Shown in pieces: positions 1 to 15,472 of a DNA stretch of 24,000 nt. Location: contig CBIFVZ010000008.1 in assembly GCA_966185765.1 (NCBI GenBank), positions 48,176 through 72,175 of the forward strand, read 5' to 3'. The notes below the pieces were generated by a model. The model had not been told where the DNA came from and searched no databases. It was given only the letters and a program-made list of their open reading frames with translations. The stretch's first letter is position 1. Each line of letters begins with the position of its first letter. This DNA is from an uncultured Enterobacteriaceae bacterium (GTDB taxonomy: Bacteria > Pseudomonadota > Gammaproteobacteria > Enterobacterales > Enterobacteriaceae). The position numbers and the translations under genes were made by a program.

Positions 1-110
1 GTAAGCTGGCGCAGCGTGGCTAATAGCTGAGTCTCATCCAGCAGCAATGCCAGCCCCGGCAGTTGCGAGTCAGCGGCAATGAGCGCCTGCTCAAGCTGAT
101 GGGCGGTCAT
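1..110 (-). CDS. 5' end (36 codons) of an unidentified CDS that continues beyond the window; last visible gene of the glycosyltransferase/ABC operon
   Basis: ATG at 110..108 overlaps the ABC-transporter stop (ATGA, 110..107). The frame MTAHQLEQALIAADSQLPGLALLLDETQLLATLRQL stays open to the window edge. It is too short to assign a family. Confidence 0.4.
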   Translation of the reverse strand, partial: MTAHQLEQALIAADSQLPGLALLLDETQLLATLRQL

Positions 111-1915
111 AGCGCCACTCCTTTTTGAATATTCCACAGTTCGAAATAACGTCCCTGTTGTGCCATGAGCACTGCATGATTACCCTGCTCAATGACCTGC
201 CCGCCATCAAGTAGCAGAATGCTGTCGGCTTTTGCCGCCAGGGCCAGGTTATGGGTAATGATGACCGTGGTTTTACCCTGCATCAGGCGCGCGAGAGCGT
301 CGGTCACCGCCTGCTCGTTTTTGCTGTCAAGGCCCACACCCGGTTCGTCGAGCAGTAAAAATGCGCTGTTGCGGATGGCGGCACGGGCAATGGCAATACG
401 CTGGCGCTGCCCGCCGGAAAGTGACATGCCGCGCTCACTGACAACCGTGCCGTAACCCTGCGGTAGATGCAGGATAAAGTCGTGGGCGTTGGCAAGCTTT
501 GCCGCAGCAATCACCTCCTCGTCGCTGACCTCACCCTCAGCGCCCAGCGCGATGTTCTCCCGAATACTGACGCCAAACAGCAGACTCTCTTGCGGCAGGT
601 AGCCAATCTGGCGACGCAGGTTGTCTACGGCATAATCGCGTACATCCGTACCATTGAGCGTAATGCGTCCACGGTCAGGCTCATAAAGACGCAACAAGAG
701 TTGGCTGAGCGTTGATTTACCGGCACCCGATGGGCCTGTGATAGCAAGCGATTGTCCGGCAGGAACGGTAAAGCTGACGTCACGTAATACAGAGGCTGGC
801 TCGTTTTCATGGGGGCTGTGGTAGGCAAAATGCACGTTTTCGAATGCCAGGTTCAGACCAGCACGCGCAATCAGTGGTTTGCCCGCCTCGCGGTCAATAC
901 CCACTGGCTGGTGCAGCAGTTCAATAACGCGCTCACCTGCGGTTACGGCCTTTGCCAGGCGGCTGCTGTATTTTGCAAATTCGCGCACCGGTCGGAAGGC
1001 GTTTTTCATATAGGAAATAAAGATAAGCAACTCGCCTGCCGACATTTTGCCGCCCAGCACGCTGCGCGCGCCAAGCAGCAACACCAGCGCTGTTACCACG
1101 GCAATGAGTACATCAACCTGGCGCTCCAGCCCCGCAGCAAGACGTTTTGCCCGCACGTTTTGTTGCAGGCTCTGGCTGTCGCTGCCGTTGAAGGTTTCGG
1201 TCGCCGCCTTTTCCAGCGACATCGCCTGGAGTGTCGCAATGCCTGTCATATATTCTGCTGAACGTGCCGCCAGATGCCCTTCGCGCTTGCGTTGGGCGCG
1301 GCTGACATCGCGAATTTTTCCTCCGCTGCGCATTGTCGCAAGCGCGAGCAGCGGCATAGGCAGTAGCGTAAGCAACGTAAGCTGCCAGTCCAGAAAGAAC
1401 ATGATGCCAAGCATCCCGGTAAAAATGACGATGCTGGAAAGCAGCGGCATGATGGCGGTGACGGTCGCTTCACGCATCATGCCGATGTCATTTATCAGGC
1501 GCATCGTCAGATCGCCCGTGCGGCTACGCTGGTGAAACGACAACGGCAGGTGCAGCAGATGGGCGAATAACGCGCGGCGAATAGCGCTCATGACCCGGCT
1601 GCCCGCCAGCGCCATGCCTATCGTGCTGGCATAACCTGCAACCGCCCTGAGAATGGCAATCACCACCACTGCAATCGCACACAGCCACAGCAGTTTTTCA
1701 GTCTCCAGTACGTTGATGCTCAGGCCATTTAACAACGTATTGTGTTTGATATCGCCCATGACCACGTCAATGGCAAACGCCAGCGGCCACGGTTCCAGCA
1801 GGCGAATCACGCTTGCCAACAGCAACACGATAAACGAGCCAGCAATCAGTCCTTTTTGCTGGCGAATCCAGGGCCAGAACGCGCGCAGGACCGACGTGGA
1901 TGATTCAACGGCCAT
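107..1915 (-). CDS. ABC exporter, fused permease/ATP-binding half-transporter (MsbA/NdvA-like architecture)
   Basis: 602-aa ORF with a hydrophobic N-terminal half containing multiple TM segments. The C-terminal NBD has Walker A GPSGAGKST, ABC signature LSGGQRQR, Walker B LLLDEP and an H-loop ITHNL. Confidence 0.9.
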   Translation of the reverse strand: MAVESSTSVLRAFWPWIRQQKGLIAGSFIVLLLASVIRLLEPWPLAFAIDVVMGDIKHNTLLNGLSINVLETEKLLWLCAIAVVVIAILRAVAGYASTIGMALAGSRVMSAIRRALFAHLLHLPLSFHQRSRTGDLTMRLINDIGMMREATVTAIMPLLSSIVIFTGMLGIMFFLDWQLTLLTLLPMPLLALATMRSGGKIRDVSRAQRKREGHLAARSAEYMTGIATLQAMSLEKAATETFNGSDSQSLQQNVRAKRLAAGLERQVDVLIAVVTALVLLLGARSVLGGKMSAGELLIFISYMKNAFRPVREFAKYSSRLAKAVTAGERVIELLHQPVGIDREAGKPLIARAGLNLAFENVHFAYHSPHENEPASVLRDVSFTVPAGQSLAITGPSGAGKSTLSQLLLRLYEPDRGRITLNGTDVRDYAVDNLRRQIGYLPQESLLFGVSIRENIALGAEGEVSDEEVIAAAKLANAHDFILHLPQGYGTVVSERGMSLSGGQRQRIAIARAAIRNSAFLLLDEPGVGLDSKNEQAVTDALARLMQGKTTVIITHNLALAAKADSILLLDGGQVIEQGNHAVLMAQQGRYFELWNIQKGVAL

Positions 1916-3074
1916 CGCACGCTCCTGCCGGTAACCGCAGACCGGCCAGTTGCCAGATGCGGTTCACCGCCTGAGTCCAGCTGTGGTGCTGTTCGGCTTC
2001 GCGACGCCCTGCGCTACCCATTTTCTGGCGTAGCGCAGGGTTGTTAATAAGGGCAATGACTGCCTGCGCCAGCGCCGCCGGGTCTTCTGGCGCAACCAGC
2101 AGCCCGGTCTCTCCATCATGAACCAGTTCAGCAAGGTGGCCGACACGCGTGGTGATAACGGGTAGCCCTGCGGCCATGTATTCATAAATTTTGAGCGGTG
2201 AAAAATAGAAATTTTCCAGCTGCGGATAAGGCGCAATGGCAATATCCACCCCTGAAAGCAATGGCGGCACCTGCGCTGGCGTGACAGCGCCGTGAAACTG
2301 AGCGCCGCAGACACCGCTTTGCGCCAGCCTCTGCTGAAGTTCGCTTGCCTGCGGTCCGTCGCCAATAATTGATAGCGTGACGTTGTAACCTTTCTGTCGC
2401 AGTAAGATGAAGGCATCAACCAGCGTATGTAGCCCGTGCCAGGGTTTGAGTGTCCCTACGAAGCCCAGCGTTAGCGCATCCCGCTCGTCGTTATCGGTGC
2501 GCGGTGCAAAGCGCGTTGGGTCAACGCCGTTTTCAACCACGTGCACCTTGCCCTGCGCCGGTGCGAAGGTTTCAAGCCAGTTGCGTACACCTGCTGAGAC
2601 CGCAATGATGGTGTCGGCGTGGTTGAGCAGGTTATCGAGTACGGCAAATGCCTCCTGCTCCAGCACCAGTTTGCGGTACTGGCGCTGCTCCTGGGGTAAT
2701 GGCGCATTCACCTCCAGCACCGTCGGTATACTCGCATTGTGTGCCCAGGTAATCGCAGCATGGCTCCACAGCGAGTAGCGCTCATACACCACATCAAACG
2801 GCCCTGCCGCGCTAAGCTGTTCTGCCAGCATCGTGTTAGCGTTGAGGGCGGCGCGTGCACGCGTTTCTTCATCCGTACCCGGCAGTGTGGGTAACGTGAT
2901 TATTTTCAGTGCACGAAACGCCTGAGGCACGTCACCCCCGAGCCTTTGGGCAAACAGCGTAATCTCAGCACCCTGTTGCAACAGCACGCGCAGCACTTCC
3001 TGGATATGAATCGACGCACCCTTTTGACCGAAAACCGGAATGCCCGGATCGGCGCAGATATAAGCCACTTTCAT
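1905..3074 (-). CDS. Glycosyltransferase, GT4-like (GT-B fold)
   Basis: 389-aa ORF. N-terminus MKVAYICADPGIPVFGQKGASIHIQE. The C-terminal GT4-type motif is EYMAAGLPVITTRVGHLAELVHDGETGLLV. Its stop overlaps the ABC start by 11 nt. Confidence 0.88.
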   Translation of the reverse strand: MKVAYICADPGIPVFGQKGASIHIQEVLRVLLQQGAEITLFAQRLGGDVPQAFRALKIITLPTLPGTDEETRARAALNANTMLAEQLSAAGPFDVVYERYSLWSHAAITWAHNASIPTVLEVNAPLPQEQRQYRKLVLEQEAFAVLDNLLNHADTIIAVSAGVRNWLETFAPAQGKVHVVENGVDPTRFAPRTDNDERDALTLGFVGTLKPWHGLHTLVDAFILLRQKGYNVTLSIIGDGPQASELQQRLAQSGVCGAQFHGAVTPAQVPPLLSGVDIAIAPYPQLENFYFSPLKIYEYMAAGLPVITTRVGHLAELVHDGETGLLVAPEDPAALAQAVIALINNPALRQKMGSAGRREAEQHHSWTQAVNRIWQLAGLRLPAGACDGR

Positions 3075-4300
3075 CAGGCGGTTTCCTTACCCTTGTGGGA
3101 AATGGCGTTACAGAAGATATTCCGCAAACGTGCGGCGTTACGGTCAATATCGAACTCACGCTCAATCAATGCCCTTGCCGTTTGTGAGAGCTGAGAACGC
3201 AGTGCGTGGTTAGTGACCAGCCCGGCAATAGCCTCAGATAATACCTGCGCATTTTGTGGCGCAACGCAACGCCCGGTTTCACCGTCAATAACCAGCTCAG
3301 GGATACCGGCGACATCCGTTGAGATAACCGGCGTGCCGAGTGCCATCGCCTCAAGTAAGACGGTTGGCAGGCCATCGCGATCCCCTTCTTCGCTAATAAT
3401 GCAGGGAGCGACAATCAGCGTGGCATGACGCATGGCGGCGATGATTTCCCGCTGGGGTAAAAACCCCGTCAGCGTGATGATGTCTTCAAGCTGTGCGGCT
3501 TTAATCTGGGCTTCAAGCGCCGCCCGCAGCGGACCGTCGCCGATAATGCTGCAGCGCAACGGATGTCCCGCATCGCGCAGCAAGCGTATTGCCTCAACCA
3601 GGTAGCAGAATCCCTTTTTCTCAACCAGCCGCCCTACGGCAAGAATTTTCGTTTCCTGGGCTGTGTCTGGTGCAGTAAAAGTGAATTTCTGCAGATCGAT
3701 ACCGTTGTACAGCCGCGTTGTTGAGGCTGCACTGTCGCCATATCGCTCACGCAACCAGCGCAGGTTGTAATCTGAAACGGTCACGGTCTGAAAGGCATCA
3801 CGCAGCTTGCCTTCAAGCTCGGTGCTTTCTTCGTAGGGGTAATAAATATCTTTCGCGTGGGCGGTAAAGCTGTAACTGATCCCGCTTAGCTGCGCTGCAA
3901 GTCGTGCCACAGTGGTTGCACGCGTGCCGAAATGGGCATGCAGGTGCTCAATACCACGTTCGCGCACGGTGAGCGCCAGCTGTAGCGCCTGGGAAAACTC
4001 ATGCACATTGCGGTGGCGGCCCTTGTCCAGACAGTGGGCAAGACCCGGTAGCTCGCGCCATGCCCTGTCAAGTAACGCCCAGAAGGCTTCAGCGCTGCGC
4101 TGTTTATCATTCAGTCGGCTTACGGGGGCTTTCACCAGAGCAATGGTGTCCTGAAAATGGGTTTCTTCCACATTTCCCAGCGCAAAAATATCAATCTTTA
4201 ACCCTGCGCGTTCATGGGCGAGGATTTCATTTACAATGAAGGTTTCTGAAAAACGCGGATAGCGTTTGACAACGTAGCCGATATAACGTTGTGGTGACAT
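3074..4300 (-). CDS. Glycosyltransferase, GT4-like (WcaL-like N-terminus)
   Basis: 408-aa ORF. N-terminus YVVKRYPRFSETFIVNEILAHERAG is typical of WcaL-type GT4 enzymes. C-terminal motif is LLEAMALGTPVISTDVAGIPELVIDGETGRCV. A GAGGT Shine-Dalgarno sits 5 nt before the ATG. The stop overlaps the next ATG (TGATG). Confidence 0.88.
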   Translation of the reverse strand: MSPQRYIGYVVKRYPRFSETFIVNEILAHERAGLKIDIFALGNVEETHFQDTIALVKAPVSRLNDKQRSAEAFWALLDRAWRELPGLAHCLDKGRHRNVHEFSQALQLALTVRERGIEHLHAHFGTRATTVARLAAQLSGISYSFTAHAKDIYYPYEESTELEGKLRDAFQTVTVSDYNLRWLRERYGDSAASTTRLYNGIDLQKFTFTAPDTAQETKILAVGRLVEKKGFCYLVEAIRLLRDAGHPLRCSIIGDGPLRAALEAQIKAAQLEDIITLTGFLPQREIIAAMRHATLIVAPCIISEEGDRDGLPTVLLEAMALGTPVISTDVAGIPELVIDGETGRCVAPQNAQVLSEAIAGLVTNHALRSQLSQTARALIEREFDIDRNAARLRNIFCNAISHKGKETA

Positions 4301-4301
4301 G

Positions 4302-5504
4302 CTATACCTCGCACTGCACAGATGCGGTTAACTGACTTTTCTGTGTTAACAGCGCATTCATTTTTTCAGTGAAGGTATACAGACCATTCAGACTCATATG
4401 CTGACGGGGATTTTCCGGCTGCCATTGTGATGCCATCCAGTTATTCAGTGCCTTAACGGTTAATTCATCAGGATGAATACAGCTCACCAGATTAATTTGC
4501 GCCAGATGTGAGGCACGAATCCATTGTTCCTGCCGGGGTGAAACACGTGGAATAATGAGCGCGCGTTTATTGAGCGATAATATTTCAATGGTTGTGTTAT
4601 ATCCACCCATAGCTACCACGCTGTGTGCCTGGCGTAATAGCGCGAGTGGGTTGGGTACGAAGCGAATAATGCGCAGGTCAGCGCGTGTGGCCGCTATTTT
4701 TTGTAGCGCTTCGAATTCGGCCGTAGGCATCATCGAGCCGGTAATTAATATGCCGGTAAATCCCTCGGGAAATGAGGACTGCGCAAAACGTGAGGCCAAA
4801 CGGAAGCCATCCTGACCGCCGCCAACCGTACATAATACATAGGGTTCGTTAAGTTCAGCCAACAGGCTGTCGGCAGATTGCGGCTGCTGGGCATGGTGCG
4901 TTGCGTCCAGATAACCCATAAATGACACCTTGCGCCTGACCTCCTGGTCAAGCCCATAAGCCTGCGTTAAGTCGTAGAAACTGGCATCGCCGTAGACCCA
5001 GACATTACTGTAGTAATCGCGAATGGCACCTGCGTTATCAAGCTTTTGCCACTGGCGCTGCACTGCCTGTGGCTCATCGATGATATCGCGAAGGCCAAGT
5101 ACCAGATGTGCGTTTTCCTCTCTTAGCATAGGGAGCACGCTATCAAGCTCTGACATCGCGCCACGCGGGACATTGTCTACCACCACCACGTCAGGGCGGA
5201 AGGACTTGAGGGCCGCATGAATAATACTGACTCGCAAAGAGACCAGACGATGGATATCGTTACCCAGTGAATGCGGTAAATATTCACCGGCCGGGGTTTT
5301 CAGATACGTGGGAAGCGTGACCGAATCCATCCCTTTAGGAAAATGAAATACGCCGGATTCACGTACGCCGTTAATGAGGAGAATTTCTGTATCAGGTCTG
5401 GACTTTAAAACGGAGTTCGCCAGCAGCATGTTACGCCGGACATGACCGAGGCCCATTGTGTCGTGAGAATAAAAAGCAAGTCGTGCGGGACGATAACCAC
5501 CCAT
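4302..5504 (-). CDS. Predicted GT-B glycosyltransferase (COG4671 / GT28-C-terminal-like)
   Basis: N-terminal RLAFYSHDTMGLGHVRRN motif and C-terminal MGGYNTTIEILSLNKRALIIPR motif. The maximal ORF starts at 5594. The ATG at 5504 (MGGYRPARLAFYSHD) is preferred because a GGGAG SD lies 8 nt upstream and the N-terminus then has a family-typical length. Confidence 0.8.
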   Translation of the reverse strand: MGGYRPARLAFYSHDTMGLGHVRRNMLLANSVLKSRPDTEILLINGVRESGVFHFPKGMDSVTLPTYLKTPAGEYLPHSLGNDIHRLVSLRVSIIHAALKSFRPDVVVVDNVPRGAMSELDSVLPMLREENAHLVLGLRDIIDEPQAVQRQWQKLDNAGAIRDYYSNVWVYGDASFYDLTQAYGLDQEVRRKVSFMGYLDATHHAQQPQSADSLLAELNEPYVLCTVGGGQDGFRLASRFAQSSFPEGFTGILITGSMMPTAEFEALQKIAATRADLRIIRFVPNPLALLRQAHSVVAMGGYNTTIEILSLNKRALIIPRVSPRQEQWIRASHLAQINLVSCIHPDELTVKALNNWMASQWQPENPRQHMSLNGLYTFTEKMNALLTQKSQLTASVQCEV

Positions 5505-5594
5505 ATTGAAAACTCCCATTCCATGGAAAATAAATAATTTCTGGTGATGTATGTAACATGGCGGAAATAAAATATCACCAGGATAAATGGACAA

Positions 5595-6067
5595 TCTTTG
5601 TTATTTTTTTATTTGTAGCTGCTTCTTTATCACGCCTTTCTTAACTGATTATTAAGAGGTGAAAAAATAAGTTTCAGATATGGGTGGAATAAAAATAGCG
5701 TGATATTTCTTATTTTTCGTTGCCGAATGTGCGCAGATTAAACTCAGGTGCAAGCGGGTGGAAGGCTCAGCTTATTAAGCGCAGGCAATGGCATCATTTA
5801 TGGGATGAAAGTGATAATGCCAGTGTAACCCGGCACGTTTATCATGATTTATTGTTTTTTTAACCTGAAGTAGGTCGCATTTTTTGGAGAAAATTTCCCT
5901 GGTGTTACATTACTGCGCTATGTGCGGATCGCACGACTAACTTTTTAAACAGTTGCCATTATATTCCTCTCTGACAGATATGTAAGATGTACTAATATAC
6001 TGCCGTATCCTGTTCTTAAGTACAGGTGATATGACATGATTTCAGGCACACGCGGAGGGAGCAGCGT
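5595..6067. promoter_or_regulatory. AT-rich divergent intergenic/control region between the GT-ABC operon and the luxR-family gene
   Basis: ~470 bp with no ORF longer than 20 codons and visibly lower GC than the flanking genes. It contains two LuxR-type-box-like palindromes (5922..5934 and 6008..6027). Confidence 0.55.
6008..6027. promoter_or_regulatory. lux-box-like 20-bp inverted repeat (candidate LuxR-family operator)
   Basis: TCCTGTTCTTAAGTACAGGT is 16/20 self-complementary. The CCTGT...ACAGGT arms match the V. fischeri lux box ACCTGTAGGATCGTACAGGT at 13/20 positions. It lies 41-60 bp upstream of the luxR-family ATG. Confidence 0.5.
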
Positions 6068-6799
6068 ATGTTATCTGTCTTTAGAGAAAATACAGTAATG
6101 AGTGGCGCTCTCAGAGAATATATTGAGCGGCGGTTACAGCCCTGTGGGCTGACGACCTATGCCTACATTGTGTTGAGCAAGCATAACCTTGCCGATGTGT
6201 TAATGATCTCTAACTACCCAAAAGCCTGGCAGGAGCAGTACCTGTCTAACAATTATTACCAGCGCGATCCGGTTGTGTTAAGTGGGCTTAAGCGAAGCTC
6301 ACCCTTCTGTTGGGATGAGAACATCACCTTCCGGCTATCCGAAATCTTCAGGTTGTCAAAACCTTACAATATTGTGAACGGTGTGACATTCGTCCTGCAT
6401 GACCACCTTAACCACGTGGCCATGCTGTCGCTGGTGACTGACTGTTTCGTCTCACAATATGAGCAACTCAAAACGCACAGTGCTAATCTGCAAATGCTGT
6501 TGATAGATATCAATGAGCAAACCCACCGTTTGCTGGATACGCCGCCGTCACTCACCTCCACAGGGCCGTCCTCAGAGCGTGACAGGTCGATGTTCACCCC
6601 GCGCGAGCATGAGGTACTGTACTGGGCAAGCATGGGAAAAACCTATGACGATATTGCCATTATTCTCGGTATCACCGAGCGCACGGTAAAGTTTCATATG
6701 GCGAATCTGGTTCGCAAGATGGGGGTCAGCAATGCGCGTCAGGCTATTCGCCTGGGTGTTGAACTGAACATGATAACACCCACCACTCTACTGCAATGA
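6068..6799 (+). CDS. LuxR-family transcriptional regulator with an N-terminal autoinducer (AHL)-binding domain and a C-terminal GerE/LuxR HTH; no cognate luxI in the window (LuxR solo within this window)
   Basis: 243 aa with a GGAGG SD at 6054..6058. The motif NYPKAWQEQYLSNNYYQRDPVV...FCWDE...NGVTF aligns with TraR W57/Y61/D70/P71/W85/G113. The HTH is TPREHEVLYWASMGKTYDDIAIILGITERTVKFHMANLVRKMGVSNARQAI, with the E-x3-L-x5-G pattern. Confidence 0.9.
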   Translation: MLSVFRENTVMSGALREYIERRLQPCGLTTYAYIVLSKHNLADVLMISNYPKAWQEQYLSNNYYQRDPVVLSGLKRSSPFCWDENITFRLSEIFRLSKPYNIVNGVTFVLHDHLNHVAMLSLVTDCFVSQYEQLKTHSANLQMLLIDINEQTHRLLDTPPSLTSTGPSSERDRSMFTPREHEVLYWASMGKTYDDIAIILGITERTVKFHMANLVRKMGVSNARQAIRLGVELNMITPTTLLQ

Positions 6800-6891
6800 T
6801 GAAGTGCTTCCTCCCAACCCAATGGGTCAGGAGCGAAACAGATGGGGGTATATTTGTCCCCGCTCTGCGCGGTATTGCATGTGCCGGGGCA

Positions 6892-7080
6892 TCAGGAAAA
6901 CGTTCTGCTCGTCCACCTGCTCTGGCTAGAGTTACAAGAGCTGTGATAGAAAGTTTCACTGCGCGAAACAGTGTCATTGTTGTTGCCCGTGAATGCACAC
7001 CACTCGGTAAAACCATTCTCAGGGCGAAAGTTGCATGCAGTGCCGCAGGGCGGGCTGTGGTAGATGGTTATGTTGCTCAT
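6892..7080 (-). pseudogene. arsC: arsC (glutaredoxin-type arsenate reductase) remnant; only the first ~14 codons are recognisable
   Basis: The ATG lies 12 nt after the arsB stop, in the usual arsB-arsC position. MSNITIYHSPPCGT matches E. coli ArsC MSNITIYHNPACGT, including catalytic Cys12. After ~7036 the frame no longer resembles ArsC and stops at 62 codons, versus ~141 expected. A full-length arsC would run into the luxR-family gene. Confidence 0.65.
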
Positions 7081-7092
7081 ATCAGCATCTGA

Positions 7093-8382
7093 TTACAAAG
7101 TGGCAGAAAGCCGCAGCGCCAGCGCGGCCAGCGTGACAAACAGCACTGGCAGGGTCATGATGATGCCCGTGCGAAAGTAATATCCCCAGCTGATGGTCAT
7201 GTTTTTCTGCGACAGGACGTGCAGCCACAACAGGGTCGCCAGACTGCCTATTGGTGTGATTTTGGGACCTAAATCGCAGCCAATAACGTTGGCATAGATC
7301 ATCGCTTCCTTAATGACGCCAGACGCTGTGCTGGCGTCAATCGACAGTGCTCCAACAAGAACGGTTGGCATATTGTTCATGACCGATGACAGGAATGCTG
7401 TCAGGAAGCCCGTACCAAACGTTGCCGCCAGCAGTCCCGTATTTGCCAGCATATTCAAAACCCCGGAAAGATATTCCGTTAAGCCTGCATTGCGCAGACC
7501 ATAGACCACCAGATACATACCCAATGAGAAAATAACAATCTGCCACGGCGCACCGCGCAGTACTTTTCCGGTATTGATGGCATGGCCGCTTTTCGCGACG
7601 ATGAATAGCACCGCAGCGCCGACGGCCGCAATAGCGCTAACAGGAATCCCCAATGGCTCAAGGACGAAGAATCCGGTAAGCAACAGAAACAGAACAACCC
7701 AACCTGCTTTGAAGGTTGCGGGATCTTTAATTGCGCTTGCAGGTACTTTGAGCAAAGTGACGTTGTAGGTTGCAGGAATGTCCCGGCGGAAAAACAGATG
7801 TAGCATGCCCAATGTGGCCGCGATAGCAGCAATATCAACGGGGAGCATGACGGATGCGTATTCCGTAAAGCCAAGCTCGAAAAAGTCAGCGGAGACAATG
7901 TTGACAAGATTCGACACGATAAGCGGTAGGCTGGCGGTATCGGCAATAAACCCGGCGGCCATAACAAAGGCCAGCGTTGTCTGTTGGCTGAACCCGAGTG
8001 CAAGCAGCATAGCGATGACAATGGGGGTCAGGATAAGCGCTGCACCATCGTTAGCAAACAAGGCCGAAACAGCTGCGCCCAACAGGACAATCCAGGTAAA
8101 CAGCAGACGACCACGCCCGTTACCCCAACGTGATACATGCAGTGCAGCCCATTCAAAAAAGCCCGACTCATCGAGCAACAGGCTGATGATAATCACCGCA
8201 ATAAAGGTCGCCGTTGCGTTTCAGACGATGTTCCAGACTACCGGAATATCCCCCACATGAATAACACCGGCTACCAGGGCTAGTGCAGCACCAATGCTGG
8301 CGCCCCAGCCAATACTGAGTCCTCGGGGTTGCCAGATAACCAGGATCAGCGTCAGTAAAAATATACTCCCTGCCAGTAACAT
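7093..8382 (-). pseudogene. arsB: arsB arsenite efflux pump interrupted by a single in-frame TGA at codon 54
   Basis: Hand translation from the ATG at 8382 (GGAG SD upstream) gives [73 protein letters not shown]. This is collinear with E. coli ArsB (429 aa) except for TGA at 8223..8221, where ArsB has Trp54 (WNIVWNATAAF). The remaining 375 codons are in frame and highly ArsB-like. Confidence 0.85.
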
Positions 8383-8426
8383 CTCCGACTCCATTATATA
8401 TGATTACAAGAATGTGTTGATTCAGG

Positions 8427-8747
8427 TCAGCAGGATGATGCTGCTGATTTATCCAGCCACTGACCAATTTCCTCCCGCAGGCAGTGCCAGGATGTCGTGA
8501 TGGTATCTGCCGCCCATGCGGGCATATATGGAGAAAGCCGGTAGTGGATCCATTTCCCTTCTCTGCGATCAAGCACCAGTTTAGCCTCTCGCAGGATTGC
8601 CATATGTCGGGAAATTTTGGGCTGAGACTCGGAAGTGGCCCCACAAATATCACACACGCACATCTCGCCCGATTCCCTGAGAAGCATCACGATAGCCAGA
8701 CGGGTTTCGTCTGACAGAATTTTGAAAAGCTGAACAGGCTGTAGCAT
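8427..8747 (-). CDS. arsR: ArsR arsenic-responsive transcriptional repressor (ArsR/SmtB family)
   Basis: MLQPVQLFKILSDETRLAIVMLLRESGEMCVCDICGATSESQPKISRHMAILRE closely parallels E. coli ArsR, including the CVCDxC As(III)-binding cysteines. The ATG at 8747 is preferred, because the upstream GTG at 8774 lies inside the promoter/operator. Confidence 0.9.
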   Translation of the reverse strand: MLQPVQLFKILSDETRLAIVMLLRESGEMCVCDICGATSESQPKISRHMAILREAKLVLDRREGKWIHYRLSPYMPAWAADTITTSWHCLREEIGQWLDKSAASSC

Positions 8748-8770
8748 TTTTCTTCCGGTAAACGTAGACA

Positions 8771-8812
8771 ACACATATGATAAATCATATGTGTTATTTT
8801 TAACATTGTCGA
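8771..8812 (-). promoter_or_regulatory. Candidate ars promoter with palindromic operator
   Basis: The 24-bp palindrome ACACATATGATAAATCATATGTGT (8771..8794) is 22/24 self-complementary. On the minus strand there is a -35 TCGACA (8812..8807), a 17-bp spacer and a -10 TATGAT (8789..8784) inside the palindrome. Confidence 0.5.
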
Positions 8813-9247
8813 TTTCAGCGAAGAAGGAAATGGATCAATTTCCGCTCCTCAATACTGACTGTGCCGACAACGCATCCTGAAGTGACTGAGCTGCATGAAC
8901 TGGTGCAATGGTCTGGCTACGGGGCGACGTGCGCGATAATGAACAGACTGATTGGCCGGATCCCTTTGTCAAAAGGAACGGTTCGTCCTTGCCGGGGAAA
9001 ACGCTGGCGGTCATGCAGGTCTGCGGCGGTTTTCAGTCATTCAATGACGTTAATCAGAGGCATATCATGGGACGCTGAATGCGCATGTTCACTATCCCGA
9101 ATGAGTCCTCCATGACAAAAGCCAGGCCAGGATTTGATAACAACGGCGCACGAAACGATGGATAGATCAGACGTTCAGGGACAGGCTGCACAACCGTTAC
9201 GAGAAAATCGCGACATGCTGGGTGCCACCGCTCATGGCAAATATACC

Positions 9248-11791: not shown

Positions 11792-13486
11792 TCAGATAGA
11801 GGTCCGGCGATAGCTGCGATATTCCGGCTGCCAGAAGTTATCTTCAATCGCCTGTAACAGCGCTTCAGATGACGTTTTCACCGCTACACCCTGCTGCTGT
11901 GCCATGCTGCCTACGGCAAATGCGATATCTTTTGACACCTGCTTAATCCGGGAAAGTTCCGGTAACACCAGCGTACTTTCACCCGTCACCAGCGGTGAGT
12001 GTTGTGCCAGCGCCTGACTGGCGGCCATCATCATCTCATCCGTTACGCGCGATGCTCCTGACGCCACCACGCCAAGTCCAATGCCTGGGAAGATATAGGC
12101 GTTATTACACTGAGCAATAGCGTAAGTCTCACCTTTAATCAGCACTGGCGGAAACGGGCTACCGGTGGCGACCAGTGCCGCGCCGTCTGTCCAGTTGAGA
12201 ATATCATGCGGTGTGGCTTCCACCCGCGAGGTTGGGTTAGACAGCGGCATGATAATAGGCCGTGGGCAGTGCTTGTGCATTTCCCGTATGATATCTTCCG
12301 TAAACAGTCCCGCCTGCCCTGAAACGCCTATCAGGATGTCGGGTTTGACGTTGTGAACCACGTCGAGCAACGACACCGTTTCGGTGGTGACGTTCCAGTC
12401 GCTCAGTTCGTCGCGTTTTTGCACCAGGCGTGCCTGGAAAGGCAGCAGGTTTGGCATGTTGTCCATTAACAGGCCAAAACGGTCAACCATGAACACCCTT
12501 GCACGTGCCGCCTCGTCACTCAGCCCTTCTGTACGCATCCAGGCAATTATCTGCTCGGCGATACCACAGCCTGCGGAGCCTGCGCCCAGAAACACAATCT
12601 TCTGTTCGCTGAGTTTGCTGCCGGCAGCGCGGCTTGCGGCAATCAGCGTACCGAGCGTAACGGCAGCCGTTCCCTGAATGTCGTCGTTGAAGCTGCAAAT
12701 CTGGTCGCGATAGCGCTCCAGTAGCGGCATGGCGTTTTTTTGGGCGAAATCCTCAAACTGCAACAGTACGTTTGGCCAGCGGTGCTGAACAGCCTGGATA
12801 AACTCATCAACAAACGCGTAATACTCTTCGTCGGTGATACGCGGATGACGCCAGCCCATATACAGCGGATCGTTAAGCAGTTGCTGGTTGTTGGTGCCAA
12901 CATCAAGCACGATTGGCAGCGTGTATGCCGGGCTGATGCCGCCGCAAGCGGTGTACAAAGACAGCTTACCAATCGGAATACCCATGCCGCCAATTCCCTG
13001 GTCGCCGAGACCCAGAATGCGTTCGCCGTCTGTCACCACAATGACTTTAATATTGTGTGTGGAAACGTTTTGCAGGATGTCATCCATATTATGACGATTG
13101 GGATACGAGATAAAAACACCGCGCGCCCGGCGGTAAATCTCGGAGAAACGTTCACAGGCTGAGCCGACCGTTGGCGTATAGATAATGGGCATCATCTCAT
13201 CAAGATGATTTTCAAGCAGGCGATAAAACAGCGTTTCGTTGGTGTCCTGAATATTGCGCAGATAAATATGCTTGTCGATATCGGTCTTAAAATCCTGATA
13301 TTGACGCCAGCCGCGCTCTGCCTGCTCTTCGATGGTTTCCACCACTTCGGGCAACAGGCCGGTGAGGTTAAAATTGCTGCGTTCTTCCGGGCTGAATGCG
13401 CTGCCTTTATTTAGCAGCGGAAATTCCAGCAGTACCGGACCGGCGTAAGGGATATAAAGAGAACGGTTTTTTTTCTGGGTTTCCAT
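11792..13486 (-). CDS. maeA: NAD-dependent malic enzyme
   Basis: [36 protein letters not shown]...YRRTSI is collinear with E. coli MaeA/SfcA (565 aa) along its full length. The 28-codon upstream extension to 13570 is absent from MaeA and was rejected. Confidence 0.95.
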
Positions 13487-13781
13487 GTTACTCACTCTTT
13501 CTTTTCTTATGTCCGGGGCCGCGCCGGGCGACCCGTCGCCGTGAGGCGGGTTCGGATAGGGCGCACTCATGATATAAGAAAATGGTTAACATCTCTCTTA
13601 CAATATATTGCATGGCAATGTTTTCATCTTCAACGCGAAAAATTGCATGCTTCAGCCCATACCGGGCCACAGTACAGTAAGCAAATCTTGCTCCCAATCA
13701 TCTTAATGAAGCGGCATTACTTAACCCACTTTTTGTGGTATATGTTATTGTTTTATATGTTGAATGTTTTTAAGGTAAATC

Positions 13782-14033
13782 ATGGAATGGGATTCACTTT
13801 TAGTATTGTTCAGCATGTTGGTGTGTGGGTTGTGGATGGTTTTTCACTCAGCCAAAGCACTTAGAAGCGGAGTATTTGTCGGCTGGTATAATGGCACGTA
13901 TAAGAACTACTACATCTACCGTTGTAAAACCCCTGTCTACTTCTACGGGTACAACGCTGTTTTTTCTCTATTCGGCTCCTTTATGATTGGTTTAGCTGTC
14001 TATCTTTTAGATGGCTATTATCAGTTTTTATAA
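13782..14033 (+). CDS. Hypothetical small membrane protein (83 aa, two predicted TM segments, Tyr-rich)
   Basis: An AAGG SD precedes the ATG. Hydrophobic stretches are LLVLFSMLVCGLWMVF and VFSLFGSFMIGLAVYLL. The sequence context is AT-rich and 11 of 83 residues are Tyr. No recognised family. Confidence 0.4.
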   Translation: MEWDSLLVLFSMLVCGLWMVFHSAKALRSGVFVGWYNGTYKNYYIYRCKTPVYFYGYNAVFSLFGSFMIGLAVYLLDGYYQFL

Positions 14034-14173
14034 ACACTTTTCTTCTGACGTCTGACTGATAAATGTGGCCGAACATTCGACGACATTTTCGCCTGCTGGA
14101 CGCCGCTGCCTGGCTTTCGCCAGGCGTGCGTGAGATGATTTCATGCTGTGTGAATGGCAAAAAGGACACAATA

Positions 14174-15472
14174 ATGCTGCAATCCAGAGGGCGACGCGGA
14201 TTTCTCGCCTTTTCACTGTTGGCCTGCCTGCTGGCCGGATGTGGCGATCGTGAGAAGCCTAAAGAGCAGCCGCAAAGGCCACCGACAGAACAAAAAACAC
14301 AGCCGGTGCGCGGCGTGTGGCTCACAACTGTCTACGGACTGGACTGGCCGTCACGCGCTTCAGTTGCGACGTTTTCTGATGCCGAGCGCATCCGTATGCA
14401 GCAACAGGAGCTGATTGCCAGGCTCGATAATATGGTGCGTCTTGGCATTAATACCGTTTACTTTCAGGCTAAACCGGACGGCACCGCGCTTTATCGCTCT
14501 GCCCTGCTCCCGTGGTCGCCCGTCCTGACTGGTACGGTCGGTAAAAACCCGGGCTACGATCCGCTGGCATTTGTCATTGAGCAGGCGCACCAGCGTGGTC
14601 TGAAGGTCCATGCCTGGCTCAACCCCTATCGCGTCACTATGGATACCTCGTCCCAGACGGTGGCCGCGCTGAACGCTATCCGTTACGCAGAAGTCGCCAG
14701 CGTTTATACCCAGCATCCCGACTGGATCCGCACGGCCAGCAACCGTTATGTGCTCGACCCTGGCTTGCCAGAGGTCAGAAACTGGATAACGCAGGTGGTG
14801 AGTGAACTGGTGAGCCACTACGCTATTGATGGCGTACAGTTTGACGATTATTTCTATTATGAAACACCGGCTTCCCGACTCGACGATAACGTCAGCTGGC
14901 AACGCTATGGCGGCGAGTTTGCCAGCCGTGGTGACTGGCGGCGCAGCAATACACTGGCGATGATTCGTGACGTTTCCAGCGTCATCCGCACGTTAAAACC
15001 AGACGTTGAGTTTGGCGTTAGCCCAGCCGGTATCTGGCGTAATGTTGCCGATGATGAACGCGGTTCCGCAACCCGGGGTGGCAATACCGCGTACGAAGCG
15101 GCGTATGCCGATACCCGCCAATGGGTGCAACAGGGACTGCTGGACTACATCGCACCGCAGTTGTACTGGCCGTTTGGCCGTGAGGTGGCACGTTACGACA
15201 CGCTGGCACACTGGTGGGCCAATACTGTGGCAGGCACGCGCACCCGACTTTATATCGGGATTGCGTTATATAAAGTGAACCAGCCTGCGGCGAACGAACC
15301 TGACTGGACAATCGACGGCGGGGTGTCCGAACTTAAGCGACAACTCGATCTTAACGAAAGCCTGCCGGGCGTAGACGGCACTATTTTGTTTCGTGAGGAT
15401 TTTCTCCATCAGCCGCAAACCCACTATGCCGTTGAGTATTTGCAGCAGCGCTGGGGGCGAAAGAGCAGATAG
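14174..15472 (+). CDS. digH: Lipoprotein glycoside hydrolase of the GHL10/DUF187 family, YddW/DigH-like (divisome-associated denuded-glycan hydrolase)
   Basis: An AAGGA SD precedes the ATG at 14174. Signal peptide plus lipobox LLAGC. RGVWLTTV, GINTVYFQAKPDGTALY, GLKVHAWLNPYRV, DGVQFDDYFY and LDYIAPQLYWPF are collinear with E. coli YddW. The upstream extension to 14063 was rejected. Confidence 0.8.
   Translation: MLQSRGRRGFLAFSLLACLLAGCGDREKPKEQPQRPPTEQKTQPVRGVWLTTVYGLDWPSRASVATFSDAERIRMQQQELIARLDNMVRLGINTVYFQAKPDGTALYRSALLPWSPVLTGTVGKNPGYDPLAFVIEQAHQRGLKVHAWLNPYRVTMDTSSQTVAALNAIRYAEVASVYTQHPDWIRTASNRYVLDPGLPEVRNWITQVVSELVSHYAIDGVQFDDYFYYETPASRLDDNVSWQRYGGEFASRGDWRRSNTLAMIRDVSSVIRTLKPDVEFGVSPAGIWRNVADDERGSATRGGNTAYEAAYADTRQWVQQGLLDYIAPQLYWPFGREVARYDTLAHWWANTVAGTRTRLYIGIALYKVNQPAANEPDWTIDGGVSELKRQLDLNESLPGVDGTILFREDFLHQPQTHYAVEYLQQRWGRKSR

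Follow-up and report, generated by a model that had tools for sequence, protein, structure and literature searches.

We analysed a stretch of 24,000 nucleotides from an uncultured Enterobacteriaceae bacterium (contig CBIFVZ010000008.1; hereafter the window), whose left end carries a minus-strand operon for glycosyltransferases (GTs) and an ATP-binding cassette (ABC) exporter. A gene for a LuxR-type regulator of the kind that binds acyl-homoserine lactones (AHLs) is transcribed divergently from it. The first operon gene (4302..5504, minus strand, 400 aa) encodes a GT1/GT28-like GT-B glycosyltransferase with weak matches to PF04101 and PF13528. It is followed on the same strand by two retaining GT4 glycosyltransferases, which we call GT4a (3074..4300, 408 aa; PF00534, PF13692) and GT4b (1905..3074, 389 aa; PF13692, PF00534, PF13439). 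Next comes the ABC exporter (107..1915, minus strand, 602 aa), an MsbA/ABCB-type half-transporter with fused transmembrane and nucleotide-binding domains (PF00664 and PF00005), and then the start of a fifth minus-strand gene (1..110), of which 36 codons lie before the left window edge. The regulator gene luxR (6068..6799, plus strand) encodes 243 aa with both PF03472 and PF00196. The ORF map and the domain scans agree with the first-pass annotation of this DNA, which had described five tightly packed minus-strand genes and a complete, divergent AHL-type LuxR gene.

Successive operon genes overlap by 11, 1 and 4 nt or are separated by a 1-nt gap; the 4-nt overlap (ATGA) joins the stop codon of the ABC gene to the ATG of the fifth gene. 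The reading frame of the first GT was listed up to a TTG at 5594. However, homologues are about 400 aa long, and conservation includes an ATG at 5504 together with its ribosome-binding site, GGGAG; by these sequence signs ATG 5504 is the most likely start. With this start the region between luxR and the operon is 563 bp (36% GC), not the approximately 470 bp given before.

The full operon was read from homologue contigs reached through homologues of the first GT: a Logan contig (L001), Enterobacteriaceae bacterium LSJC7 (L006) and Enterobacteriaceae bacterium 4M9 (L086). In all three, the ABC gene is followed by a kinase gene, a barrel gene and then unrelated genes. The kinase of these relatives has 759 aa and two APH-type kinase domains. 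The 36 codons in the window agree with its invariant N-terminus (residues D14, L17, G19 and L20), and from this translation the gene cut by the window edge is assigned as a tandem small-molecule kinase. The kinase model has a predicted local distance difference test (pLDDT) score of 92.9, and its best fold match is mycobacterial maltokinase, followed by PsiK, choline kinases, MTR kinase and APHs. The catalytic HxD and DxD motifs are intact in both halves (H309-G-D311 with D329/D331, and H640-R-D642 with D662/D664), and the protein shows no sign of a methyltransferase or of a coiled-coil ruler region. The barrel, the last gene of the operon, encodes 432 aa with the PF13372 "alginate export" domain of the AlgE family, a signal peptide and a C-terminal Phe; it matches no NCBIfam model. 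A metagenome protein of 760 aa (P0315) is a natural fusion of one APH kinase of the second-half type to a GT1/GT28-like transferase, a Rosetta-stone type of link that joins the first gene of the module to the fifth. The predicted operon is thus one of six genes: GT1/GT28-like GT, GT4a, GT4b, ABC exporter, tandem kinase and AlgE-family barrel. The leftward extension that the first-pass annotation had proposed is answered by these relatives: it adds a kinase and a barrel and reveals no conventional Wzx/Wzy or Wzm/Wzt pathway.

A conserved module and its nearest known relatives

An alignment of the first GT was scanned against 185,579 genomes, one per species, and 543 relatives were confirmed by tblastn. 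We examined gene order in the best 80 of these 543, and in essentially all of them the genes for the GT1-like enzyme, GT4a, GT4b, ABC exporter and kinase are collinear. A tally over 86 sources counts the GT1-like gene in 86, GT4a and GT4b in 85 each, the ABC exporter in 83, the kinase in 81, the AlgE-like barrel in 37 and LuxR in 3; the shortfalls among the five core genes fall at contig ends. The best 80 place this module in Enterobacterales, Pasteurellaceae, Neisseria, Cardiobacterium, Lautropia, Thauera and other Burkholderiales, and Granulosicoccus, and also in Rhodobacterales, in Nostoc and other cyanobacteria and in a metagenome-assembled genome of Rhodothermales. Its range therefore covers Alpha-, Beta- and Gammaproteobacteria, cyanobacteria and Rhodothermales. 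A record labelled Erwinia amylovora strain CEB_12 (L030) carries it, as do many Erwinia, Brenneria, Pantoea and Mixta genomes, which may offer tractable plant-associated hosts.

The accessory genes vary with lineage. The AlgE-like porin is missing from the Pasteurellaceae, Neisseria and Rhodobacterales loci. In the cyanobacterial loci it is replaced by an OprB-type, SLH-anchored carbohydrate porin, and the kinase there consists of the second domain only. A UDP-glucose dehydrogenase gene adjoins the module in 25 loci, often in Pasteurellaceae, Neisseria, Lautropia and Cardiobacterium. About 28 distant loci (including L018, L041, L047-L060 and L073-L084) have a NarL-type response regulator (REC and GerE domains) and a histidine kinase upstream of the module; about nine of them also encode a PepSY protein. 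This two-component pair is likely the ancestral regulator set of the module.

Domain scans of the window and of its relatives confirmed that Wzx/Wzy, Wza/Wzc and KpsMT proteins are absent. The window and the operon and flanks of the relatives lack the flippase, polymerase, polysaccharide co-polymerase (PCP) or outer-membrane polysaccharide export (OPX) protein and priming transferase of a Wzx/Wzy pathway. The transporter is a fused PF00664 and PF00005 protein with no accompanying OPX or PCP protein, unlike the Wzm/Wzt or KpsMT type. Across 85 loci, the module has no conserved partner of the OPX, PCP, polymerase, chain-length-regulator or priming-transferase type, and a giant NdvB-type synthase occurs in none of the loci examined. 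The earlier description of a non-canonical operon for glycoconjugate synthesis and export is consistent with these results, as the operon fits no Wzx/Wzy, Wzm/Wzt/KpsMT or synthase pathway. Its suggestion that the gene set is not a characterised locus also agrees with our searches, in which neither a curated family nor a paper was found. Literature searches on the module or its host gave no description of the module, with coverage that was incomplete and leaves room for an earlier characterisation. Exact-sequence look-ups of three window proteins gave no match. Megablast against E. coli genomes and plasmids was likewise empty, which ruled out a plasmid or an E. coli element as the identity of the locus.

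No operon protein scores at or above the cut-off of any NCBIfam model (scores are quoted as score/cut-off). The best scores of the ABC exporter are 414/780 for MsbA_rel, 407/602 for MsbA (TIGR02203), 351/725 for HepA and 290/733 for NdvA (NF010178), with 355/867 for NF008381 and 234/585 for TIGR01192. The Nostoc orthologue (L073) is also below the HepA cut-off (387/725). The nearest structures in the PDB are ABCB1/ABCB4, Sav1866, MsbA and BmrA. The exporter resembles MsbA, PglK, NdvA(ChvA) and HepA in its fused type IV fold and in being encoded with cytoplasmic GTs. However, it scores below all of these curated cut-offs, and an NdvB-type synthase, a lipid A context or a HEP island does not accompany it; its partners in the module are instead a tandem kinase and a porin of AlgE or OprB type. 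With scores below the equivalog cut-offs, it is not placed with the NdvA/ChvA cyclic-glucan, MsbA lipid A or HepA exporters.

The solved folds nearest to the first GT (AF2 model, pLDDT 87.7) are GT1 enzymes that glycosylate small aglycones; the top Foldseek matches in the PDB are OleI/OleD, YjiC, UGT109A1 and CalG (E about 1e-15). GT4a is nearest to PimB', PimA, BshA and GlgM, and GT4b to MshA, the sucrose-phosphate-synthase-like Tll1590, GlgM and PimA. The solved relatives of both GT4 enzymes act on small phosphorylated molecules or lipid head groups: the acceptors of GlgM, MshA, PimA/PimB' and their kind are Glc-1-P, Ins-3-P, Fru-6-P, malate and the phosphatidylinositol head group. This small-acceptor chemistry is actinobacterial, whereas the hosts of the module are Gram-negative or cyanobacterial, and its product is proposed to leave the cell, not to be stored or to stay in the membrane. 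The nearest kinase fold is also actinobacterial, the maltokinase Pep2/Mak, but identity is only 12-16%, and the module kinase is a tandem protein found without GlgE or TreS.

These folds might also suit a resistance function, in which a small toxic compound entering the cell, for instance a macrolide or an aminoglycoside, would be glycosylated, phosphorylated and pumped out. The best structural neighbours of the first GT are the macrolide-inactivating OleI and OleD, the kinase belongs to the APH/macrolide-phosphotransferase fold group, and multidrug exporters are among the best PDB matches of the ABC protein. We consider such detoxification very improbable. Two glycan-building GT4 enzymes are invariably present, a UDP-glucose dehydrogenase is linked, and dedicated carbohydrate- or alginate-type porins accompany the module. 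The operon is ancient, collinear across phyla and provided with its own two-component system, and no NCBIfam resistance model is matched. Anti-phage defence was considered on account of a GT4-conflict match and rejected: the PF20706 matches are weak and lie beneath stronger GT4 families, and the PADLOC scan gave generic ABC-ATPase matches and no defence system. Another parallel comes from fungal and bacterial glycolipid biosurfactants. The sophorolipid cluster (UGTA1/UGTB1 and a multidrug resistance exporter) and rhamnolipid RhlB clusters also combine an ABCB-type exporter with a GT1-type enzyme for a small lipophilic acceptor, although this is a resemblance only. The module differs from these clusters in the absence of a P450 or RhlA and in the presence of two GT4s, kinases and a porin.

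A lipid-linked polymer is a live rival. A secreted exopolysaccharide or capsule-like polymer might be built by the GTs as repeats on a lipid carrier primed elsewhere (for example by WecA), terminated or modified by a WbdD-like kinase and exported by the ABC protein and the barrel. AlgE-family barrels are known from polymer export, the ABC protein resembles HepA and PglK, and WbdD is a precedent for a kinase as chain terminator. GT4a also has a WcaL-like match and scores 190 against a cut-off of 400 with an EpsE-like NCBIfam model, and the 25 loci with UDP-glucose dehydrogenase would suit a polymer as well. Nevertheless, we find this rather unlikely. OPX, PCP, polymerase and primer are conserved in none of the 85 loci, and all NCBIfam scores are far below cut-off. 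The kinase fold is nearest to maltokinase and choline-kinase types and comes without the methyltransferase or coiled-coil ruler, and the porin is missing in three lineages (Pasteurellaceae, Neisseria and Rhodobacterales). Comparison with alginate gives a similar picture: the barrel of the relatives shares PF13372, the signal peptide and the C-terminal Phe with Pseudomonas AlgE, but the module lacks the Alg8/Alg44 synthase, AlgK and AlgX, and its barrel is dispensable in many lineages and replaced by the OprB-type porin in cyanobacteria. The PF13372 barrel, present in relatives, is the single component shared with the alginate system, and the module is not assigned to it.

The LuxR unit and the intergenic region

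Both domains of the LuxR protein are above cut-off (PF03472, 92.7 bits; PF00196, 61.6 bits). Its best PDB match is YenR (5l07), and it is 50-55% identical to Hafnia and Serratia proteins named EsaR, ExpR or SpnR, and by sequence it belongs to the EsaR/ExpR/YenR/SpnR clade. All nine TraR residues compared (W57, Y61, D70, P71, W85, G113, E178, L182 and G188) are identical in it by BLASTP (9/9), in an alignment that agrees with the PDB 1h0m match. LuxR stands next to the operon in four close relatives only: the window, LSJC7, 4M9 and one Logan contig. The identity among these proteins is 74-91%, the 4M9 orthologue being 91% identical.

The first-pass annotation had called this LuxR a solo. No luxI-like sequence occurs in the window or in the flanks of L001, L006 and L086, and locally the term holds. 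In contrast, 4M9, the closest complete genome, carries a canonical convergent luxR/luxI pair 1.9 Mb away (L087), whose LuxR is 47% identical to that of the window. From this pair and the 91% orthologue, both read from sequence, the window LuxR is an orphan paralogue in a lineage able to make AHL. The 4M9 pair (646960-657706) adjoins genes for a serralysin-type metalloprotease (Peptidase_M10 and HemolysinCabind) and its inhibitor (Inh).

A palindrome search of the intergenic region found one lux-type site, CCTGTTCTTAAGTACAGG (6009..6026), of the form CTG-N10-CAG, 42 bp upstream of the luxR ATG and just downstream of a promoter-like site for luxR (5971-5998). This lux box is conserved in L001, L006 and L086, and the paired luxR of 4M9 has the same layout. 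Of the LuxR-box-like palindromes described before, only this one is of the lux type; the others are not, and no second lux-type palindrome occurs in the intergenic region or near the operon promoter. The lux box lies about 500 bp from the start codon of the operon.

Between the lux box and the operon lies a candidate yenS/esaS-like small RNA unit (5806..5986, minus strand), directed at the operon and made up of a conserved promoter, an RNA core and a hairpin. Its promoter, CTTACA-17-TATAAT (5986 to 5958), matches at 10 of 12 positions, and the hexamers are kept among relatives with a variable spacer. The predicted transcript is about 146 nt long with the core TAACACCAGGGAA at 5895-5907. Its terminal hairpin (5817-5836) shows compensatory changes and has a poor U-tract. 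Upstream of the paired luxR of 4M9, the same box, promoter hexamers, spacing and RNA core are found, but there the unit ends in a proper terminator. YenR and EsaR drive divergent small RNAs, yenS and esaS (PMC3493969). An Rfam scan of the intergenic region gave a chance-level match only, and no Rfam family covers the candidate. The predicted duplex of the candidate small RNA with the operon leader (RNAduplex, -46.6 kcal/mol) is reached by 17% of dinucleotide shuffles; control by base-pairing with the leader is not claimed, as the pairing is no better than in shuffled controls.

The operon appears to have regulatory sites of its own. A promoter-like site close to it has its -35 hexamer at 5677-5672 and its -10 hexamer at 5653-5648, and the palindrome CTTAA-N7-TTAAG (5640..5656), a candidate operator, overlaps the -10-like hexamer. 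This palindrome keeps a fixed distance to the start of the first GT (-151 to -156), both in the window and in L001, L002, L003, L006, L007 and L008, and it is also present in Tenebrionibacter, a JGI contig and Enterobacillus, which have no luxR there. It is restricted to the closest clade and was rejected as a module-wide site. The predicted 5' leader of the operon contains an inverted repeat, CTGGTGAT-N25-ATCACCAG (5541..5581, minus strand), just upstream of the ribosome-binding site, which may be an attenuator or a protein-binding site. Its first arm is largely conserved in LuxR-less relatives and its second arm is not; an intact repeat is found chiefly in the window and in L001. On these sequence comparisons, the operon has its own predicted promoter and operator, common to LuxR-less relatives. 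Autonomous regulation of the operon is suggested by this promoter and operator, kept without luxR, and by the NarL-type neighbours in about 28 distant loci.

The layout resembles the "quorum-hindered" regulators EsaR/YenR/ExpR/SpnR (Pantoea stewartii, Yersinia enterocolitica) in clade, in the residues of the AHL pocket and in the lux box at the regulator's own promoter. It also resembles the esaS and yenS systems in its divergent sigma-70 promoter and predicted small RNA. The window differs in having no convergent luxI, and its small RNA would lack the usual luxI mRNA target; in addition, the small-RNA terminator has no U-tract and faces the glycosyltransferase operon. The lux box is best read as serving luxR and the small RNA. 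Read-through past the hairpin could couple LuxR to the operon, since the small-RNA promoter points at the operon and the hairpin lacks a U-tract, but this is speculation.

The first-pass annotation had favoured a stronger link, in which the adjacent LuxR directly controls the operon on an AHL signal and the whole is a dedicated quorum-responsive glycoconjugate system. The divergent arrangement is retained in four related genomes, the AHL pocket and the helix-turn-helix domain are intact, and the lux box lies within the shared intergenic region, where the associated promoter faces the operon across a hairpin with no good U-tract. EsaR of Pantoea stewartii, moreover, regulates exopolysaccharide genes. 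Even so, direct control seems unlikely to us. The lux box is remote from the operon start and arranged as in a canonical luxR/luxI locus, where it would serve luxR and the small RNA; no second lux box is found near the operon promoter; and that promoter and its operator are kept in LuxR-less relatives. LuxR accompanies the module in only 3 of the 86 tallied sources, plus 4M9. All of these are close relatives, and a NarL-type two-component system is found elsewhere, which does not support the LuxR link as a general trait of the module. The operon could be under quorum control, but this was the weakest part of the earlier reading, of which the conserved, phylum-spanning module is the strongest.

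Genome history of the locus

The window is collinear with 4M9 over 4-6780, and collinearity returns at 9202. The segment between (6781..9201, minus strand) holds a decayed ars cassette that is not part of the system and replaces the FMN-reductase, cytochrome b and IclR genes of 4M9. Of its genes, arsR (8427-8774) seems to be complete, the frame of arsB (7093-8382) is interrupted by a stop near codon 54 (approximately 8221-8223), and arsC is a stub (7041-7092) with its first 17 codons only. A frameshifted full-length arsC was rejected, as the ArsC-like codons number only 17. The first-pass annotation had the operon block end inside a broken arsC. The gene is indeed broken, but only this stub is left of it, and about 240 bp (6800-7040) separate it from the luxR stop codon; they match neither arsC nor the sequence downstream of luxR in 4M9 and LSJC7.

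In Tenebrionibacter, collinearity with the window covers 9-5662 and continues only at the malic-enzyme gene (11792). The 6.1 kb between the operon and this gene, which carry the small RNA and the luxR, AraC, MBL and TetR genes, thus represent an indel that is particular to the LSJC7/4M9 lineage. Genes for malic enzyme and a glycosyl-hydrolase-like 10 (GHL10) protein flank the operon in every close-clade member (11792-15472 in the window; 6445-9617 in L002 and L007), and in Tenebrionibacter they directly abut it. By gene order, the position of the operon is conserved across genera and the ars cassette is the swapped element. Since the ars segment was swapped in, the broken arsC is no evidence for horizontal acquisition of the operon block, and the earlier proposal of such acquisition is not supported by this synteny. 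The lower GC content noted for luxR and the first GT is real (0.47-0.53 against 0.55-0.59), but the dip is mild and equally low values extend through the right flank to 9500.

Proposed product and regulation

Our preferred interpretation, to which we give a probability of about one half, is that the operon makes a short phospho-glycoside for export and stands beside a separate LuxR/small-RNA unit that controls it indirectly at most. Gene content, gene order and its conservation, folds, catalytic motifs and the positions of the regulatory sites are observed; the nature of the product and the direction of transport we infer from gene content and folds. A phosphorylated glycoside or glycolipid head group is the best fit for three soluble GTs with one or two kinases, a half-transporter and a frequent porin, and with no linked polymerase, chain-length determinant or primer. 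A small phosphorylated product is favoured by the maltokinase-like fold, the intact kinase motifs, the small-acceptor relatives of the GTs and the P0315 fusion. The AlgE-family barrel, the cyanobacterial OprB porin and the UDP-glucose dehydrogenase in 25 loci favour export of an anionic sugar.

In the proposed mechanism, the module would assemble a short, defined glycoside in the cytoplasm, with about three glycosidic bonds made on a ubiquitous small or lipidic acceptor. The kinase would add one or two phosphates, and glucuronic acid is probably part of the product in some lineages. Export of the anionic product would take two steps: the homodimeric ABC exporter would carry it over the inner membrane, and the dedicated porin would let it out through the outer membrane. 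We likewise infer every regulatory link from the positions of sites. The regulator unit (orphan LuxR, lux box and divergent small RNA) probably arose as a paralogue of a canonical luxR/luxI locus. Through the lux box, LuxR most likely regulates its own gene and drives expression of the small RNA. If LuxR acts on the operon at all, the effect would be indirect, for example by transcription that passes the weak small-RNA terminator or by way of the small RNA, and lineage-specific.

Several points weigh against this interpretation. An oligomer, a polymer and a glycolipid are indistinguishable from sequence alone. MsbA-type exporters also flip lipid-linked polymers (PglK, perhaps HepA), Pseudomonas AlgE passes a long polymer, and a primer such as WecA could be supplied by a gene outside the locus. 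On the regulatory side, the small RNA is predicted from five sequences and by analogy, and its terminator is atypical. The stable adjacency of luxR and the operon in four genomes, with LuxR identities of 74-91%, is compatible with a real regulatory coupling, and proteins of the LuxR type are able to act from remote or degenerate sites that are hard to recognise.

A bolder version would see here an ancient, undescribed pathway that ranges from oral Neisseria and Aggregatibacter to plant-associated Erwinia and Nostoc. With its AlgE- or OprB-type porin, it would make and secrete a defined phospho-oligosaccharide or phosphoglycolipid; normally switched by the two-component system, it would have been rewired in the LSJC7/4M9 lineage to quorum sensing through the orphan EsaR/YenR-type receptor and read-through from its small-RNA promoter. 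This version is conceivable, but we regard it as doubtful.

The most notable part is the conserved module that spans phyla, a form of ABC-exporter-dependent glycoconjugate export with an unusual kinase and porin set; the LuxR part belongs to a known kind. If the product is indeed a defined, secreted phospho-glycoside or phosphoglycolipid, the module would export glycans by a way that belongs to none of the Wzx/Wzy, ABC (Wzm/Wzt) and synthase schemes. Experiments have a clear starting point in the collinear five-gene core, the fusion of kinase and GT, and the porins that replace one another. The duplicated luxR and small-RNA unit beside a new potential target would be a test case for how orphan receptors gain regulons. 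As hundreds of species have the module, including oral bacteria, pathogens of plants and cyanobacterial symbionts, one biochemical characterisation would annotate many genomes.

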